Part shown: positions 18,694 through 63,193 of the stretch, piece after piece
Layout of the letters: the number at the start of each line of letters is the position of its first letter
Position numbering within the stretch: position 1 is the first letter of the stretch
Source of the DNA: Candidatus Latescibacterota bacterium
GTDB lineage: Bacteria; Latescibacterota; UBA2968; UBA8231
Assembly: GCA_965248265.1 (NCBI GenBank)
Contig: CBDFJF010000001.1
Coordinates: 1,440,001 to 1,504,000 of the forward strand
DNA: 64,000 nt
Direction of reading: 5' to 3'
Translations under genes and position numbers: made by a program
The notes under the pieces: generated by a model
The model's database searches: none
Told to the model about the DNA's origin: nothing
The model's input: the letters and a program-made list of their open reading frames with translations, nothing else

Positions 18694-21600
18694 CTACAGC
18701 TGTTCAAGTGTCTCTCTGATCGCATCCATATCGTAACGCTGTGCCAGCTCGCGCAGGTGAGAGGCCAGGCTCTGCCCTTCCTCCCCGAGATCCTCGACGC
18801 GCGTCAAATGCCTGCGCAGATCGGTAACACTTTGACCTTGGACCGCTGCGAGCAGGTCGTCGCGCAACGCCCCCGGCAGCTCAACTTCGTGCCAGTCAAC
18901 AACCACTGACTCCACGACCTCGGGCTCCGTTGTGTATTCGTACTCCACGCCTATCTCTTCGGCCAGGCATTGGTAGACGGCTTCCGCGCGTATCGGTTTT
19001 TCGATCAATCGGGCGAAACCCAGTTCCAGGAACCGCTTCCGCTGATGGTCGAACACCGATGCGGTCACCGCCACGACCTTCGCGGTACTCGCTCCGTATT
19101 CGGCGATCAAGCGCTCGAGCGTAGCCGGACCGTCCAGCACCGGCATGCGAATGTCGAGAAGAATGATATCCGGCATACCCTCCCGTACCCTCTCCAAAGC
19201 CTCTTGCCCATCCTCGGCCTCCACGACGTCTACTCCGATTTTGCGCAGAAAAAGAGCGAGGACGTCACGATTCGTCGCCACGTCGTCGACGACGAGAGCT
19301 CGCACGGAAGTGCCCGCGGCGAGATGTCGCACCTTCGACCAGTCCATCCTTGTTTCCCGTGCTCCTGCGACATGCCCTGCTGCAGCGGGTAGTGGCAGGG
19401 TGAAGGAAAACCCTGCACCTTCGCCCGGCCTGGACTCCAGCTCGATGTTCCCCCCCATCATCTCGACGAAGCGGCGCGAGATGGTAAGGCCCAACCCTGT
19501 GCCACCCTGGCGTAATCCTTCCCCTTCTTGCCGGAACGCATCAAAAATGGTCGCCTGCTGCTCCGTGGCAATGCCCGCACCGGTGTCGACGACCTCAAAC
19601 GTGTGCGAATCGTCATCCGGCCGCACCTTCACCCGCAATAGTACCTCGCCTTCACGCGTGAACTTGACGGCATTGCTCAGCAGATTGATCAGCACCTGGC
19701 GCAGCTTGCCCCCGTCGCCGTGCACGGGGAGGTCGGGTAAGCTTTCCTCGAAGCGCCAATCCACATTCTTCCGGTGGCACTGCATGGCGAACATTAACTC
19801 CAGTTCGTGCAGCATGCCCTTCAGGTCAAAATCGGCTTCATGCAGCTCCTCGCGCCCCGCTTCAATCTTAGAGATGTCGAGCACGTCGTTGATCAACCTC
19901 AGCAGTTGCTGTCCGCTGCTTTCGATGGTGCTGATCGCTTTCCGCTGGCTGTCGTTTAGACGGCTGTCGTCACCGAGAATCTGGGTGTAGCCGAGAATGG
20001 CGTTCATCGGGGTCCGCATCTCGTGGCTCATGTTCGCGAGAAACTGACTCTTGGCTTGACTGGCAGCCTGGGCGTGCTGCTTAGCGCGTTGCAACTCATC
20101 ATCGGCCCGCTTGCGCTCCGTGATATCCCGGAACGTACCGACGTAGAATCCCAGATCCTGCCCCGTCTTTGCCTCCGTCACCATCGCTTCCATCGGAAAT
20201 ATCGATCCGTCGGCGCGCCGACCTGTCATCTCGCGATACGTCTGGAGGGCTGCTAGCTGCTTTGGGTCGGGTTCGTCCGCCTTCCCCCCCTCTGCACCGA
20301 ACAGACGCGTCAAGGGCCGGCGAGCCATTTCCTCCTCGCTGTATCCGAAAATCGCTTCGGCGGCCGGATTCCATGTAAGGATGGCGAACGACTCCTTGGC
20401 ACAGGTGACGATGCCGTCCATGGCCGTCTTCACTGTAGCCTCGGTCCGGGCCGTTGCTCTCTCCAGCGCTTCCATCACGAGATTGTATCGCTGGGCGATC
20501 TGCCCGATCTCCGTGAACGGTTCCACCGGTACCCGTAGGTCCAGCGCGCCCGACTTGGACTGGCGATCCATCACCTCGAACAGCTCCAGGAGATCTGTAG
20601 TGGCGCCGTGTTCCGATACGTTTAAACCGACCTCTTCCTGTTCGGGCGTGACTCTGAGTTGAGTGAAGTAGTTGATCGCGGAAAATAGAATGAAGGTTAC
20701 CCCGAAAGCCCAGACGAAGCAGGCTGCGATGCCTGTCGTTTGCGCATTTATCTGATCCCAGAAGCCGAGTCCCGTACCCAGCAAGTCTGGCTCACCGAAG
20801 AGGGCTACAGCCAGTGTTCCCCATATACCTGCGCCCAGGTGAACGGGGACGGCGCCCACGGCATCGTCGATTCGTAGGCGCAGCAGCAGATGGTCCACCC
20901 CCACCATCACTACTCCACCTGCGGCCCCGATGGCAACGGCCGACACCGTCGTCACGGCGAAGGCACTGGCCGTGATGGCCACAAGACCCGCCAGCGAGCC
21001 ATTGAGCATCAGGTCCACGTCTGCACGGTCTCGCGTCAGCCAGCCCAGGGCCACCGCCGCCACCATGCCCGCCGCACCTGCAAACACCGTGTTGGCGATG
21101 ATCCCCGGTACCTGGCCGTTCATGGCGAGCGTACTGCCGCCGTTGAAACCGAACCAGCCCATCCACAGCAGGATGACGCCCAGTGTCGCAACGGGCACGT
21201 TGGCTCCGGGGATCTTGCGTGGCGGTCCATCCTCAGGAAAACGACCGCTGCGCGGACCGATGATCAACAGAAGAGCGAGGGCGCACCACCCGCCAACGCT
21301 GTGAACGACGGTGGAACCGGCGAAATCGACAAATCCCCTCATACCCAACCAACCATTCGGCGCCTCCACATCCACACCACTCCAGGCCCAGTGACCGAAA
21401 ACGGGATACACCAGAACCGCCACTGCCGCAGCCACTAAGAGATAGCTCGAAAACCGAAGCCGCTCCGCGATGGCGCCGGAGATGATCGTCACCGTAGTTC
21501 CACAGAACATGGCTCCAAACAGGAGGAAGACGGCGAACCAGGCTCCAGCTCGACCGAAATCGGGAACGAAATCACTCGTTCCTATCCACCCACCATTCGA

Positions 21601-21801
21601 CGCCCCCCACATGAGCCCGTATCCGACTGCCCAGTACAGGACGATGGACAACCCCAGGTCAGCCAGGTTTTTGACGGCGACATTGATGTTGTTCTTGCTG
21701 CGCGTCAGCCCCGTTTCCAGACACAGAAAACCGCCCTGCATCAGGAAGACCAGGCCGGCGCTGACTGTCACCCAGAGGATGTCTATCAGTGGTTTGTCCA
21801 T
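18694..21801 (-). CDS. amt: Ammonium transporter (Amt) fused to PAS, histidine kinase and receiver domains (hybrid sensor)
   Basis: Amt motifs MQGGFLCLETG, ISGAIAER, DFAGSTVVH, GWFGFNGGS, DDAVGAVPVH, EEVGL; PAS WNPAAEAIFGY; H-box ANMSHEMRTPMNAI; NLLSNAVKFT, DTGAGI, GTGLGL; receiver LLDIRMP. Confidence 0.92.
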   Translation of the reverse strand: MDKPLIDILWVTVSAGLVFLMQGGFLCLETGLTRSKNNINVAVKNLADLGLSIVLYWAVGYGLMWGASNGGWIGTSDFVPDFGRAGAWFAVFLLFGAMFCGTTVTIISGAIAERLRFSSYLLVAAAVAVLVYPVFGHWAWSGVDVEAPNGWLGMRGFVDFAGSTVVHSVGGWCALALLLIIGPRSGRFPEDGPPRKIPGANVPVATLGVILLWMGWFGFNGGSTLAMNGQVPGIIANTVFAGAAGMVAAVALGWLTRDRADVDLMLNGSLAGLVAITASAFAVTTVSAVAIGAAGGVVMVGVDHLLLRLRIDDAVGAVPVHLGAGIWGTLAVALFGEPDLLGTGLGFWDQINAQTTGIAACFVWAFGVTFILFSAINYFTQLRVTPEQEEVGLNVSEHGATTDLLELFEVMDRQSKSGALDLRVPVEPFTEIGQIAQRYNLVMEALERATARTEATVKTAMDGIVTCAKESFAILTWNPAAEAIFGYSEEEMARRPLTRLFGAEGGKADEPDPKQLAALQTYREMTGRRADGSIFPMEAMVTEAKTGQDLGFYVGTFRDITERKRADDELQRAKQHAQAASQAKSQFLANMSHEMRTPMNAILGYTQILGDDSRLNDSQRKAISTIESSGQQLLRLINDVLDISKIEAGREELHEADFDLKGMLHELELMFAMQCHRKNVDWRFEESLPDLPVHGDGGKLRQVLINLLSNAVKFTREGEVLLRVKVRPDDDSHTFEVVDTGAGIATEQQATIFDAFRQEGEGLRQGGTGLGLTISRRFVEMMGGNIELESRPGEGAGFSFTLPLPAAAGHVAGARETRMDWSKVRHLAAGTSVRALVVDDVATNRDVLALFLRKIGVDVVEAEDGQEALERVREGMPDIILLDIRMPVLDGPATLERLIAEYGASTAKVVAVTASVFDHQRKRFLELGFARLIEKPIRAEAVYQCLAEEIGVEYEYTTEPEVVESVVVDWHEVELPGALRDDLLAAVQGQSVTDLRRHLTRVEDLGEEGQSLASHLRELAQRYDMDAIRETLEQL

Positions 21802-21918
21802 AGATGTCCGGAGTATAGGTAGGACACAGCTGTATTGATAGCAGCTTGCTTGGCTGCGGTCCCTGCATGATACTTCGAGAGCTACCGAAAGACAACCTGT
21901 TACCCTGGACAAGATGTC

Positions 21919-38073: not shown

Positions 38074-38937
38074 TTAGCCCTGGCCCTGTTCGACCCGATC
38101 GCGTCGCGTGGTCCTCTCCCCATTCGTGGGTTGTCCCCCCTGGGGAGGTTGGTCAGGTCGGACACCCTCCGGTGGCTCAAACCCGGATCGTTGGCCCGGG
38201 GGGACGTCACCCTGGGTGTCGCCACCCCTTCTCCCTCTGCCACCCCCTGAGCGCTCGGGAAGACTGGCGGGATCGAGAAAACCGGTGCCGGGGTGCAGCT
38301 CACGCCACACGTTCCAGGTCGTGTACACAGAGGGCATTTCGCCTGTCCTCGAACCGGCGTAGTCGCCGGAAATGCTGGTCATGGCGATGTCGCCCTCAAG
38401 ATGATACCAGAGACTCTCCGTCTCCTCGTCGAAGAGCACGAAAGTGTCCTCGTAGAGAATTCCGACAGATGCAAAGGTCAGGATCTGTCCCTCTACCTCG
38501 CGGCTGTACACGGCAGCCAGATTGGCGCGGGGTCAGTAGGCAACAGCGATGTAGTCGTCACCAAAGTGGCCATTGGTTACCTCGATGCCGGTAAGTGCGT
38601 CGAGCGAATAGGCTCGGGCTGAGCCGTTCATGTTCACACCGATAACGACGGAATCGTCGTCGTCCGTCGGGTACCCGGCATCTCCCGGGTACAGCATCCC
38701 TGGATCCGAAACAATGGGAAACGAGCCGATCCCACCGCCTCCAGTAAAGTCGGAAGAGTGCATACCCACCTCATCCCGAGCAAAGGTGAGATCCCACGCC
38801 CTTCCGGTGCGGTCTTCGAAGGTGTCAGGTCCATCTCCGGATGCAAGGACGATCAATTCCTCGGAATGTTGACTGCAACCGATGACCAGTGCGCCAAGAA
38901 CCGCACCGAGGGGAGAGAGCAGGTGACATGACCTCAT
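38074..38937 (-). CDS. DUF3179-family lipoprotein, probable selenoprotein (TGA 38533-38535 read as Sec)
   Basis: ORFs 38533..38937 and 38074..38511 share a frame: VIGV...ARAY...IAVAY-[TGA]-PRANLAAVYSREVEGQILTF...LFDEETESLW. The TGA sits at the Cys of the family YCP motif; lipobox LVIGC. Confidence 0.8.
38495..38532 (-). promoter_or_regulatory. SECIS-like hairpin directly 3' of the in-frame UGA
   Basis: GGCUG/CAGCC stem (38502-38518) with loop CCGUGUA starting 19 nt after UGA; possible lower stem CCCCGCG/CGCGAGG. Confidence 0.6.
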
Positions 38938-41229: not shown

Positions 41230-41673
41230 TCAGATAAGCAGAGAGCCGGCATTCACGTGCAGTGTGGCGCCATTGATGTAAGTGGAGCGCTCGGACACCA
41301 GGAATAACACCGCGTCCGCTAACTCTCTCGGGGTGCCTTGACGTTTCAGCGTCGACGCTTCGGCGAACTTCCTTTTCTCGTGGTCGCCGAAGCTGTCAGT
41401 GATCGGTGTGTCGATGGTTCCTGGTGCAATAGCGTTGGCCAGAATTCCCTCGAGGGCAAATTCCTGAAGTTCGTCAGCCACATCCGTCTCAACCACCGAA
41501 CACTTGGTCTGAGAATTGTCCTCGACGAGTCTTCGCGTCTTCTCAGCGCCTGCAGCGTCCACATCCGCGATGACGATCCCATTGGCGCCGGCTTCTGCCA
41601 GGACTTCGGCCACGGCGCGGCCGATACCGGACCCTGCTCCCGTGACGATGGCCGTTTTTCCGGAGATATCCAT
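41230..41673 (-). pseudogene. SDR oxidoreductase with in-frame internal deletion
   Basis: TGAGSGIG...TDVADE is joined directly to LQEFALEGILANAIAPG; NNAG, catalytic Ser and YxxxK are absent; 147 aa. Confidence 0.8.
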
Positions 41674-41890
41674 GGAGACGATAAACGGGGTTCTCGAAAG
41701 CACTGACAAGGGGATAGGTGTACGGCGCTTCACACGACACACCCCACCGTCTTGACCAGATCCATTCTCGAAAGCTAGATTGGCAAACTCGCCTGCAGAA
41801 CCTGACAACCAAGCTCCGGGCAATGCAATCACACCCAGCTGCGCCTGCTGCGTAAGATGGAAACCCGCGAGTACTACTTAGTGAGTACCC

Positions 41891-60215: not shown

Positions 60216-61292
60216 TTACCTCGCCTCGCCACCTGGCCGTCCGCGCATGGTGCATCGGATGTGTTTGGCAAATCGCTTCTTGTTGGCCTTTTCCATCCTG
60301 CGACTCTGTGAATTCCGGTTGGCTCTAGCGTACTCGCGCTCCAGCTTTCGGTAGTTGACCAGTCGGTTCTGCTCCAACTCCCCCCGTTTGATCGCCGCCT
60401 GCACCTCACAACCCGGCTCCTTTTCGTGCTTGCAGTCATTGAAGCGACACTGATTGGCAAGCTCTTCCACATCCTGAAAACTTTCGCTGAGACCTTCATC
60501 ATCTCCCCACATCTGCAGCTCCCGCAGGCCCGGCGTGTCGATGAGAAGCCCTCCGGACTGCATGAAGATGAGCTCCCGATGCGTGGTCGTGTGCCGGCCC
60601 CGTCCGTCGATACTTCGTATGGCGCCCGTCTCCATCGCTTCAGCGCCGACAAGGCAATTGACCAGCGTCGACTTGCCCACTCCGGACGAACCGACGAATG
60701 CCGTCGTGGTGCCGGGTTCGAGATAGGACGTCAGGCACTCCACATCGCCCAGCTGTGCGCTGACCGCGTGCACGGGAACTCCCATGGCGATGCCCTCCAC
60801 CTCGGAAACGCGTTCCACCACTGTCCCACACAGGTCTGCTTTGTTCAACACGATGACTGGGCGTGCGCCACTGTCCCACGCCAGTGTCACATAGCGCTCC
60901 AACCGCCGCAGGTTGTAGTTGTCGTCCAGGCCGGTCACCAGAAAGAGGGTATCGACGTTGACGGCGATCAGCCGCTCCTTTTCGGCGGGTGTCTTGCTGG
61001 CGAACCCTCGCGCGAATTTGCTCCGTCGCGGCAGAACCGCCCGGATGATTGCCCTGTCGCCAGCTGCAGGCTCCACGGCCACCCAGTCACCAACCGTGGG
61101 AAAATCGCTCTTGGATATAGCGTCGTGTCTGAAGCGACCGGAAACGACGGCTCGTTGCTCCCCCACCTCAGAAAGGATCACGTACACTTCCCGATGCTCG
61201 AGGGCAACTCGAGCTGGCAACAGGCCTGGTTGTGCAAGGGATTCGAAGTTTTCTTGAAAGAACTGTGTCCAGCCCAATGAATCCAGATTCAT
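60216..61292 (-). CDS. rsgA: Ribosome small subunit-dependent GTPase A (long-N-terminus type)
   Basis: PTVGDWV OB fold; circularly permuted NKAD / GSSGVGKS / GRHTT / DTPG; Zn finger CRFNDCKHEKEPGC; GGAG SD. Confidence 0.95.
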   Translation of the reverse strand: MNLDSLGWTQFFQENFESLAQPGLLPARVALEHREVYVILSEVGEQRAVVSGRFRHDAISKSDFPTVGDWVAVEPAAGDRAIIRAVLPRRSKFARGFASKTPAEKERLIAVNVDTLFLVTGLDDNYNLRRLERYVTLAWDSGARPVIVLNKADLCGTVVERVSEVEGIAMGVPVHAVSAQLGDVECLTSYLEPGTTTAFVGSSGVGKSTLVNCLVGAEAMETGAIRSIDGRGRHTTTHRELIFMQSGGLLIDTPGLRELQMWGDDEGLSESFQDVEELANQCRFNDCKHEKEPGCEVQAAIKRGELEQNRLVNYRKLEREYARANRNSQSRRMEKANKKRFAKHIRCTMRGRPGGEAR

Positions 61293-61318
61293 GGTTGCGA
61301 CTCCGTTAGAACAGAATG

Positions 61319-61347
61319 AGGCTGCGGACGAACCCGTACCGCAGCCT
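61319..61347 (-). promoter_or_regulatory. Hairpin in the rsgA 5' UTR
   Basis: AGGCTGCGG...CCGCAGCCT, perfect 9-bp stem. Confidence 0.6.
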
Positions 61348-61354
61348 AGTACAC

Positions 61355-61381
61355 AAAAAAGCCGTCCCACCGTGGACGGCT
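61355..61381 (-). terminator. Intrinsic (attenuator) terminator upstream of rsgA
   Basis: AGCCGTCC-ACGGTG-GGACGGC then TTTTTT on the minus strand, about 63 nt before the rsgA start. Confidence 0.8.
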
Positions 61382-61409
61382 GATATCTGAATGATCGATT
61401 AGATAGTCG

Positions 61410-61484
61410 TCAGCAGTCTCCAGGACCAGGTACGAGCACGCGAGTGTCGTCGAAGTGTGTGATTGTCATGTCCCTAACCAACAT
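61410..61484 (-). CDS. Leader peptide (uORF) MLVRDMTITHFDDTRVLVPGPGDC
   Basis: SD AAGGAGG (61490-61496), 5 nt before ATG; 24 codons; stop 28 nt before the terminator stem. Confidence 0.7.
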   Translation of the reverse strand: MLVRDMTITHFDDTRVLVPGPGDC

Positions 61485-61609
61485 GGCTGCCTCCTTTTTG
61501 GTCCTTTCTCTCTGAGTGTGCGCGGTTTAAATCCATCCTACGGTGGCAGGTGAACAGTAGCAAGTAAAAAATTGGCATGCTGGGCCCTGGAGTAATCAGC
61601 CTATTGGGA

Positions 61610-61638
61610 TTGACAAAGCCTGCCGTCAAAGTGATACT
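61610..61638 (+). promoter_or_regulatory. Putative sigma70 promoter
   Basis: TTGACA-N17-GATACT, 43 nt upstream of ATG 61682. Confidence 0.55.
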
Positions 61639-61681
61639 GGCAGGTAGAGATTCTGACCCTGTTACGTGGAGCTGAACCACA

Positions 61682-61933
61682 ATGAAGAAGAACACCTTTC
61701 GAACAGCTGCCTTCGGCACTTTCCTCGGTCTGACCTTGTCATTGGGCCTTGGTTTCGGCACGACAATGTTGAGTGCGGCGGTGATTTCTCCGACAGTTGA
61801 GCAGAGCAAGACCTGCGACAAGCCCGAAGTATGTCCCCTGGAAGACAAGGTGGACTGCCCGAAAACTGCCTCCCCCAAGACTACCCAGACTTCAGCGCCC
61901 ACTCAGTGCCCGTACAGTGGTGCCAAGATCTGA
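61682..61933 (+). CDS. Small secreted Cys-Pro-rich peptide (83 aa)
   Basis: Own promoter, GGAG SD, signal peptide, four Cys, own terminator. Confidence 0.65.
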   Translation: MKKNTFRTAAFGTFLGLTLSLGLGFGTTMLSAAVISPTVEQSKTCDKPEVCPLEDKVDCPKTASPKTTQTSAPTQCPYSGAKI

Positions 61934-61960
61934 CGCAACCAAACAGTCCGTCATCGAGAG

Positions 61961-61991
61961 GCCCCTGGACCGCTGAGTCCGGGGGCTTTTT
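61961..61991 (+). terminator. Intrinsic terminator
   Basis: GCCCCTGGAC-CGCTGA-GTCCGGGGGC-TTTTT. Confidence 0.85.
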
Positions 61992-62140
61992 CGTGATCAG
62001 ACGCAGAGACCATGAGGCCCATTGCACTACTTGAGCCAATGAATATTTTTGTAACAGATTCACGAATTTCGACCGATATTATATATACCCCCTGTGCGAC
62101 TGAACGCGGGTGGAGTGTCACTCGATCAGAGGAACGAACC

Positions 62141-63193
62141 ATGGCTCAATATGAAGATCGCGACGGCGGCGGTGACGGCGACGGCGAAGAGGAGGGCGAA
62201 TCTGAGATTCCGGCGATGCAGAAGATCGGTATCCTCTTCGTCGCCTTGGGTCAGGAGACAGCCGGAGAAGTCATGAAGTTCCTCACGGACTATGAGATCG
62301 AGGAGATCACACAGTCCGTCGCGAATCTTAAAAATGTCAGCGTAGAACAGCAGGACAAGGTGATGGAGGAGTTTGAGCAGCACCTCCTCGCCGGAGAATG
62401 GGTCAGCACAGGAGGCATGGACTTCGCTCGTGGCGCTCTGGAACGCGCCGTCGGGCCCCGAAAAGCCCAGGAAATTCTCGATCGCGTTGCCAGCACCGTT
62501 TCTTCCGGTTTCTATATGCTCAAGAACGTCGCCCCGGAGCAGGTCGCCCCGTTCATCTCGCATGAGCATCCCCAGACCATTGGACTGATCCTATCGCAGT
62601 TAGACCCGGCCCAGGGTGCCGGTATTCTGGCGCAGTTGCCCGAGCGCATGCAGTCCGATGTGGCCTACCGTATCGCGACCATGGAGAACATCACTCCAGC
62701 TATCCTCAAGGAAATTGAAGAGGCCCTCGAAGCCTCGCTGCGCGACATCCTCGGCGGTAATCAGGACGTGGGTGGACCGAAGGTGGTCGCGGATATTCTC
62801 AACCTGACCGGTTCGTCGGTGGAAAAGAACGTCCTGGACCAGATGGATGCGCAGGATCCGGAAGTTGCCGAGTCCGTGCGTAACCTCATGTTCACGTTCG
62901 CCGATATCTCCAAACTCACCGACCGCGAACTACAGGTACTATTGCGCGAGGTCGATCAGAAGGATCTCGTCGTCGCGCTCAAAGCAGCCGAGGAGGAGTT
63001 GAAGGACAAGATCCTCGGCAACATGTCCGAGCGCGTGCGCACCTTCATCACTGAGGAGATGGAGTTTCTCGGCCCGATGCGTCTCAGCGAAGTGGAAGAA
63101 GTGCAGCTGCGCATCGTGCAGCAGGTACGTCAGCTCGAAGAGCAGGGCCAGGTAACCATCGTCCGCGGCGACGCCGACGATTCGTTCGTATAA
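62141..63193 (+). CDS. fliG: Flagellar motor switch protein FliG
   Basis: GGMDFA, EHPQTI, GGPKVVADILN, MFTFADI, NMSER, GPMRLSEVE; AGAGGA SD before ATG 62141. Confidence 0.95.
   Translation: MAQYEDRDGGGDGDGEEEGESEIPAMQKIGILFVALGQETAGEVMKFLTDYEIEEITQSVANLKNVSVEQQDKVMEEFEQHLLAGEWVSTGGMDFARGALERAVGPRKAQEILDRVASTVSSGFYMLKNVAPEQVAPFISHEHPQTIGLILSQLDPAQGAGILAQLPERMQSDVAYRIATMENITPAILKEIEEALEASLRDILGGNQDVGGPKVVADILNLTGSSVEKNVLDQMDAQDPEVAESVRNLMFTFADISKLTDRELQVLLREVDQKDLVVALKAAEEELKDKILGNMSERVRTFITEEMEFLGPMRLSEVEEVQLRIVQQVRQLEEQGQVTIVRGDADDSFV

Follow-up and report, generated by a model that had tools for sequence, protein, structure and literature searches.

The rsgA locus and its leader

What controls the expression of an rsgA-like GTPase gene that is preceded, on its own strand, by a very short reading frame and an intrinsic terminator? 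The question is raised by the last few kilobases of a 64 000-nt stretch of DNA from a Candidatus Latescibacterota bacterium (the whole stretch is hereafter called the window). A first-pass annotation had proposed that a ribosome translating the upstream open reading frame (uORF) blocks an antiterminator and so ends transcription before rsgA. The Shine-Dalgarno box, 24-codon uORF, terminator (61355-61381) and second hairpin on which this proposal was built, and rsgA behind them, are all found on the minus strand where they had been placed. The features used below are as follows.

60216..61292, minus strand: rsgA-subfamily GTPase gene, 358 amino acids (Pfam, NCBIfam, homologue and structure matches)
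61319..61347, minus strand: hairpin 2, homologous to the second terminator of the leader family (folding and alignment to covariance model R2)
61355..61381, minus strand: terminator 1, a stem-loop (61381-61360) with a U run to 61355, terminator-like in the scan
61401..61424, minus strand: region C, running from the last uORF codons through the stop to 9 nt past it; 5' strand of the antiterminator (nascent folds)
61410..61484, minus strand: uORF, 24 codons plus TGA at 61412-61410 (sequence and ORF list)
61421..61438, minus strand: region B, third quarter of the uORF; its alternative partners are region A and the 5' arm plus loop of hairpin 2
61482..61506, minus strand: region A, ribosome-binding region of the uORF (sequence; in alignments its box coincides with the one that is invariant in the family)
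61563-61558 and 61540-61535, minus strand: hexamers of a weak candidate leader promoter, spaced by 17 nt (read by eye, inferred)

The leader occupies the minus strand from about 61506 to 61319 and belongs to a single-gene mRNA, with the rsgA ATG at 61292. Upstream of it lies a divergent ORF on the plus strand (61682-61933), and the rsgA stop is 5 nt from the end of a convergent oxidoreductase ORF, so that rsgA is monocistronic. Because the upstream neighbour is divergent, the terminator at 61381-61355 cannot serve any co-directional gene, which agrees with the earlier claim of a uORF and terminator dedicated to rsgA. A scan of the whole 64 kb returned 22 terminator-like sites with a dG of -10 or below, and just two of these (61381-61355 minus; 61960-61987 plus), both within one 700-nt region, are short clean stems in intergenic positions as judged by manual comparison with the ORF list. 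The candidate promoter (61535..61563) has 8/12 matches to the sigma-70 consensus and falls under the threshold of the promoter scan, which listed no minus-strand site between 60000 and 63000.

Region A comprises a 6-nt segment (61504-61499), the Shine-Dalgarno box (61496-61490), which ends 5 nt upstream of the ATG, and the start codon itself (61484-61482). Terminator 1 consists of eight perfect pairs closed by a 6-nt loop (dG -14.6), and begins 28 nt beyond the uORF stop. Hairpin 2, at 62 nt from the stop, has nine pairs plus three inner pairs (dG -20.7) and is followed by a poor U tract. Between the U run of terminator 1 and the rsgA start there are 62 nt, 29 of which are hairpin 2. The fold of the 211-nt leader as a whole is not unusual (z -1.24). 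The peptide encoded by the uORF holds no known arrest motif and no Arg/Lys-x-Arg/Lys triplet, and the frame has no regulatory codon run, merely two adjacent Asp codons that its relatives do not have in common.

The 83-residue ORF at 61682-61933 (+), situated between the rsgA leader and fliG, has a signal-peptide-like start and several cysteines and gave no Pfam match. A consensus-like promoter (61610-61638, +) precedes it and a clean terminator of its own (61960-61987, +) follows, with fliG beyond.

The gene behind the leader

The 358-aa protein matches Pfam RsgA_GTPase (PF03193) at E 1.7e-47 and scores 147.2 bits against NCBIfam TIGR00157 (cut-off 100); it stays below the cut-offs of two PRK equivalog models (174.6 vs 360 and 117 vs 483). 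Solved structures of canonical RsgA, that of Bacillus subtilis YloQ included, cover only residues 68-324 (E 1e-35 to 1e-20), whereas Bacillaceae proteins among its relatives match over the full length (E 1e-88 to 1e-108). From this difference we assign the gene, on alignment evidence, to an RsgA subfamily distinct from canonical RsgA. Scanning one genome per species recovered 203 relatives, of which 80 were kept, matching over their full length at 39-55% identity; they come from Zixibacteria, Ignavibacteria, cyanobacteria, Chloroflexota, Acidobacteriota, Lactobacillaceae, Bacillaceae and some archaea. The nearest proteins (73-92% identity) were found among metagenome proteins only.

Bacillota with the subfamily gene presumably also carry yloQ/cpgA. 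The subfamily is thus a second RsgA paralog, at least in Bacillota; in L. plantarum, lp_1687 bears the name rsgA2 in PMC7278804. The annotation as RsgA stands, while a role as the housekeeping 30S maturation factor is at most putative, given a separate subfamily that is a second paralog at least in Bacillota.

A family of leaders upstream of rsgA homologues

The leader in the window is, judged from structure-aware alignment, a diverged member of a conserved leader-RNA family that so far counts 13 members, the window included. The proposal of the first-pass annotation could have foundered on relatives without this arrangement; instead, 12 of them (L003-L007, L009, L011, L016, L018, L020, L022 and L026) carry a homologous leader. 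What they have in common is a strong, alignable Shine-Dalgarno box, a uORF and downstream hairpins. The box, a start codon 5-10 nt downstream of it, a frame of 18-24 codons and a stop are kept in 13/13 members, with uORFs of 18-21 codons everywhere except in the window (24). The stop varies among TAA, TAG and TGA, and in the nine-member alignment it falls at one aligned site. The two other frames are mostly closed across these spans, +1 being open in one of the 13 members and +2 in five. The peptides are not conserved and vary widely outside the paired parts; an Arg/Lys-x-Arg/Lys motif occurs in those of L003, L004, L006, L007, L009 and L016.

A terminator lies 20-30 nt past the stop in the seven members with compact leaders and is further off or degenerate in the others. 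The second hairpin is found about 60 nt past the stop in six members, and is followed by a U run in L003, L004, L007, L009 and L016. The spacing in the window (28 and 62 nt) is close to that in L003 (26 and 60 nt), and in L003, L009 and L016 hairpin 2 lies 57-61 nt from the stop.

Two covariance models were built from other loci, the window being excluded from both. Model R1 (six loci) has a single match in the 64 kb, at 61355-61504 on the minus strand (22.9 bits; E 8.6e-5, a rough value from a shortened calibration), where the window takes a 37-nt insertion and two non-standard pairs in the helix between regions A and B. Model R2 (five loci), which spans the end of the uORF through hairpin 2, matches the window at 61313-61385 (E 0.0028, likewise rough because of shortened calibration) with both hairpins in standard pairs only; terminator 1 thus aligns with the first terminator of the family, every pair being standard. 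These scores are modest. That models made without the window find exactly this place is the strongest evidence that the leader is real. Across 81 sources (505 kb), R1 gave 12 matches at E <= 1, of which six are its training sequences, and all 12 lie directly upstream of an rsgA homologue on the same strand; L022 fell under the R1 threshold.

It took structure-aware alignment to reveal the homology; searched with the leader in blastn and with the peptide in tblastn, the 80 loci gave chance-level matches alone. A Shine-Dalgarno-preceded uORF together with a terminator within 200 nt of the start was found for 10/78 homologues as against 3/188 other genes at the same loci (Fisher p 3.8e-4, the loci not being phylogenetically independent). 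This count has a matched control, unlike the tally of uORFs ahead of those homologues whose upstream regions are long. The homologue of highest identity (55%, L013) has no recognisable leader, and about 40 homologues, mostly from Chloroflexota, lie in operons with less than 30 nt upstream.

The uORF start in the window (61484-61469, minus) adds five codons to the family norm. Codon 6 is a second in-frame ATG, which would give the family-typical 19 codons and the common Met-Thr start, and has no Shine-Dalgarno box at a usable distance. Both ATGs sit within one small hairpin.

A third hairpin occurs 90-118 nt past the uORF stop in L003, L004, L007, L009 and L016, and in L004, L007 and L016 it has a U run. 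The sequence of its 5' arm is similar to the complement of the terminator 2 3' arm, so that the helices may go on alternating in a chain.

Pairing of the uORF end with terminator 1

The antiterminator described in the first-pass annotation was recovered in full. Positions 61418-61410 pair with 61383-61375 at eight of nine positions (one U.C mismatch), an inner helix joins 61405-61401 to 61388-61384, and the whole is the minimum-energy fold of the nascent RNA as long as the 3' arm of terminator 1 is missing. For masked folding, a ribosome footprint was blocked and the transcript folded at successive lengths. With the footprint at the uORF stop, the pairs between region C and the 5' arm of terminator 1 drop from nine to zero, which upholds, within the folding model, the claim that a ribosome at this stop would block the antiterminator.

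Taken in the window alone, the antiterminator is only moderately unusual against chance. Its stabilisation was equalled by 22, 39 and 84 of 1000 dinucleotide shuffles (with 40, 60 and 90 nt of upstream sequence), and a cruder duplex test of region C against the terminator 1 arm was not significant (379/500 shuffles as good). The same duplex is weak in several relatives (43 to 143/500), and in nascent folds the uORF end pairs with the 5' arm of the terminator in seven of the eight family members tested. Between the window and L003, one pair of terminator 1 is changed on both sides. Covariation in this stem was counted only on the model-fitted alignment, which leans towards structure; MAFFT misaligned the uORF of the window with the family and shifted terminator 1 in two relatives.

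Region B and its two partners

Three mutually exclusive pairings appear in the computed folds: B can pair either with A or with the hairpin 2 5' arm, and C can pair with that of terminator 1. The A-B duplex has a dG of -24.7 in the window, matched by 12/500 shuffles, and by 0 to 22/500 in seven relatives (8/8 testable members, the window included; L018 was untestable because the locus ends there). On the model-fitted alignment, 4/8 pairs of this helix show changes on both sides in 14 cells, a count reached by 0/500 shuffles, and 79% of its positions are paired as against 37-48% in slid registers. The second duplex, between B (61438-61421) and 61347-61331, has a dG of -18.7 in the window (19/500 shuffles as good) and is matched by 0 to 7/500 in the five relatives that have hairpin 2 (6/6 members, the window included). 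Here 4/12 pairs are changed on both sides in the MAFFT alignment, with 81% paired in the relatives vs 33-51% in slid registers. Hairpin 2 itself is 96% paired, and its single compensatory pair comes from the comparison of the window with the five relatives.

Masked folds of the window behave as a three-part switch would. Until hairpin 2 is complete, its 5' arm is held by B only under masking of the start region (-22 to +16) or of codons 8 to 10; without a ribosome, A-B persists and hairpin 2 forms. L007 shows the same pattern. In the four other relatives tested (L003, L004, L009 and L016), B pairs with hairpin 2 in the nascent RNA even without a ribosome, so in these the predicted A-B helix is not clearly an anti-antiterminator. 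At equilibrium, terminator 1 and hairpin 2 are both in the minimum-energy fold under any masking, and any switch must therefore be kinetic.

A model for attenuation and its alternatives

The leader is probably a uORF-dependent, that is ribosome-mediated, transcription attenuator, for which the main inducing signal would be a ribosome halted early in the uORF; we give this reading moderate confidence. A ribosome that translates the uORF to its end would cover B and C, allowing terminator 1 to form and transcription to stop. With no ribosome, A and B would pair, and hairpin 2 would form even where C holds off terminator 1; the stop would then be at hairpin 2, a full terminator in relatives that in the window has a weak U tract. 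With a ribosome held on the start codon or within the first ten codons or so, A would be occupied and B and C free, both hairpins would be pre-empted and rsgA would be transcribed. Read in this way, the leader would report arrested early translation, as caused by ribosome-directed drugs or defective subunits, and would switch on a ribosome-associated GTPase. The proposal that a ribosome held on the uORF induces the gene would accordingly hold for one stalled early. Induction by scarce ribosomes becomes doubtful, since the pairings of B predict that hairpin 2 forms in a leader without a ribosome. The two-state logic of the first-pass annotation was right in kind and incomplete, having missed both pairings of B and the homology of hairpin 2 to a second terminator. 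The off state without a ribosome may itself not exist in the window, where hairpin 2 lacks a proper U tract, and should hairpin 2 fail to terminate in this bacterium, the simpler scheme holds.

That simpler scheme, to which we give a minor share of the probability, needs terminator 1 and the antiterminator only. Absent, slow or stalled ribosomes would all lead to read-through, and the leader would gauge translation capacity in a feedback on a 30S assembly factor. It accords with an antiterminator that is the minimum-energy nascent fold and is lost only when the stop region is masked, and with the U tract in the window, so weak that hairpin 2 may not terminate; sequestration of A by B would on this account tie uORF translation to fast loading of the 30S subunit. 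It has more difficulty with the conservation of hairpin 2, which carries a U run in the five relatives named above, and with the covariation of B with both partners, which a single terminator leaves unexplained, and the excess of the antiterminator over chance is modest.

Covariation of the A-B and B-hairpin 2 helices would also be expected of an RNA switch that works independently of translation, in which the binding of a protein (e.g. RsgA or a ribosomal protein) or of a small ligand decides whether terminator or antiterminator forms and the Shine-Dalgarno-like and anti-Shine-Dalgarno-like helices are purely structural. Parts of the peptide do look shaped by RNA constraints, given how widely its sequence varies outside the paired parts. 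We nonetheless consider such a switch improbable in view of a box, start, frame length and (varying) stop maintained throughout the 13 members while other frames are mostly closed, of stops that coincide at one site of the nine-member alignment, of the lack of any matching Rfam family, and of different short uORFs before the same gene in other lineages. Very improbable, in our estimate, is an independent small gene for the peptide of 24 residues or for a small RNA, ending at a terminator of its own while rsgA is expressed from a separate promoter. A terminated short transcript would arise in any case, and Listeria rli80 was first listed as a small RNA (PMC6310831). Such a gene is at odds with the short distance from the U run to rsgA, nearly half of it hairpin 2, with the empty minus-strand promoter list, with the position of 12/12 R1 matches directly upstream of rsgA homologues on the same strand, and with a peptide that is not conserved.

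Within the preferred reading of a ribosome-mediated attenuator, a more specific role can be put forward tentatively, and we think it possible though not likely. The leader family would mark a widespread and so far unrecognised translation-stress module, in which the leader senses ribosomes that have stopped at initiation or shortly after it and switches on a dedicated RsgA paralog for damaged, immature or drug-bound 30S subunits. The sensor would combine the ribosome-binding site of the uORF with a pair of antiterminators within the reading frame and the tandem terminators. If true, the gene would be the small-subunit counterpart of HflXr and a candidate factor for intrinsic tolerance to ribosome-targeting antibiotics in several phyla.

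Relation to known systems

Rfam 15, applied to 60800-62200 at E up to 10, gave a best match of 18.7 bits vs a gathering score of 60, located elsewhere, and 20 related loci gave no match at gathering scores. Searches of the openly accessible literature for RsgA/YjeQ together with attenuation, leader peptide, uORF or Term-seq returned no description of such a leader, in line with the first-pass annotation, which knew of none for rsgA. The kind of mechanism, leader-peptide attenuation, is known; the leader family and its target gene appear to be new.

In the trp, his and pheA attenuators, a ribosome at the end of the leader peptide favours the terminator, and the alternative hairpins overlap the reading frame. 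Both traits recur in the window, the former as a proposal; in contrast to those systems, the uORF of the window has no regulatory codon run and the regulated gene is not biosynthetic. Among Bacillota, vmlR, yxjB and ABC-F resistance genes reportedly have leaders with a uORF and a terminator. These likewise precede genes that act on ribosomes, and differ from the present family in gene and sequence.

The closest likeness is to the rli80 leader of Listeria monocytogenes hflXr (lmo0762), a uORF attenuator of 14 codons according to PMC6310831. As described there, it also combines a short leader uORF, an intrinsic terminator, an antiterminator and an anti-antiterminator, and regulates an extra paralog of a ribosome-associated GTPase; a stalled ribosome induces it (PMC6310831), a logic that for the window is our proposal. 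The two leaders share no sequence or Rfam relation, and the target here is an RsgA rather than an HflX. The Arg-Leu-Arg arrest motif of rli80 is absent from the window peptide, while L003, L004, L006 and L007 have it. Unlike that of rli80, the anti-antiterminator here would include the site at which ribosomes bind the uORF itself, and the hairpins, two or three in number, stand in tandem.

In actinobacteria, uORF-coupled attenuation acts on whiB7/wblC and responds there to translation stress, and one of the two RsgA/EngC paralogs of Streptomyces coelicolor stands in a list of paralog pairs with a member activated by WblC and tetracycline (PMC7157823). That paper, which deals with RsgA and a uORF, describes no leader of the present kind. 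The attenuator there is on the gene of a transcription factor and controls the RsgA paralog indirectly, whereas in the window it would act directly on the gene.

The regulation of RsgA genes is largely uncharted and their second paralogs have no assigned role. A conserved leader resembling those of erm, ABC-F and hflXr genes would give such a paralog a testable function, the response to arrested ribosomes, and the 13 members and two models provide an RNA family for wider searches. The design is unusual in that the ribosome-binding site of the uORF is sequestered and that each of the tandem terminators has a partner inside the uORF. If the logic holds, the leader would be a compact three-state sensor that tells 'no' from 'passing' and 'stuck' ribosomes.

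Other leaders before the same gene

In Lactobacillaceae, other Bacillota and cyanobacteria, too, the gene is preceded by leaders with short uORFs, which look unrelated. At five loci from Lactobacillaceae (L034, L039, L052, L057 and L059), a uORF of five codons, conserved as Met-Ser-Val/Ala-x-x and equipped with a strong Shine-Dalgarno box, lies some 190-235 nt ahead of the rsgA homologue, with a terminator at 50-90 nt from the gene. A conserved segment found about 70 nt further downstream pairs with the box, and the consensus that RNAalifold gave for the five leaders, though weak (-1.32 kcal/mol), again pairs the ribosome-binding box with downstream sequence. This looks like a separate or very diverged leader.

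At six cyanobacterial loci (L008, L010, L025, L031, L061 and L065), a uORF with a Shine-Dalgarno box lies about 155-165 nt upstream of the gene; it has 18 codons, or 30-34 in two of the loci, and no canonical terminator follows. In the folds, the 5' end of these leaders pairs with the sequence immediately ahead of the rsgA start, a hint that control is translational and not transcriptional.

Other observations in the window

Three further sites away from the leader were noted. The minus-strand ORF at 41230-41832, a 200-residue short-chain dehydrogenase, matches only the ends of its profile (1-61 and 160-234), the middle seemingly being absent. Two adjacent minus-strand ORFs (38074-38511 and 38533-38937) match positions 4-64 and 74-149 of the DUF3179 profile in succession and may be one gene broken by a frameshift or a stop. 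At 18694-21912, also on the minus strand, a single ORF of 1072 residues combines an ammonium transporter domain with PAS, histidine kinase and receiver domains in one fusion.
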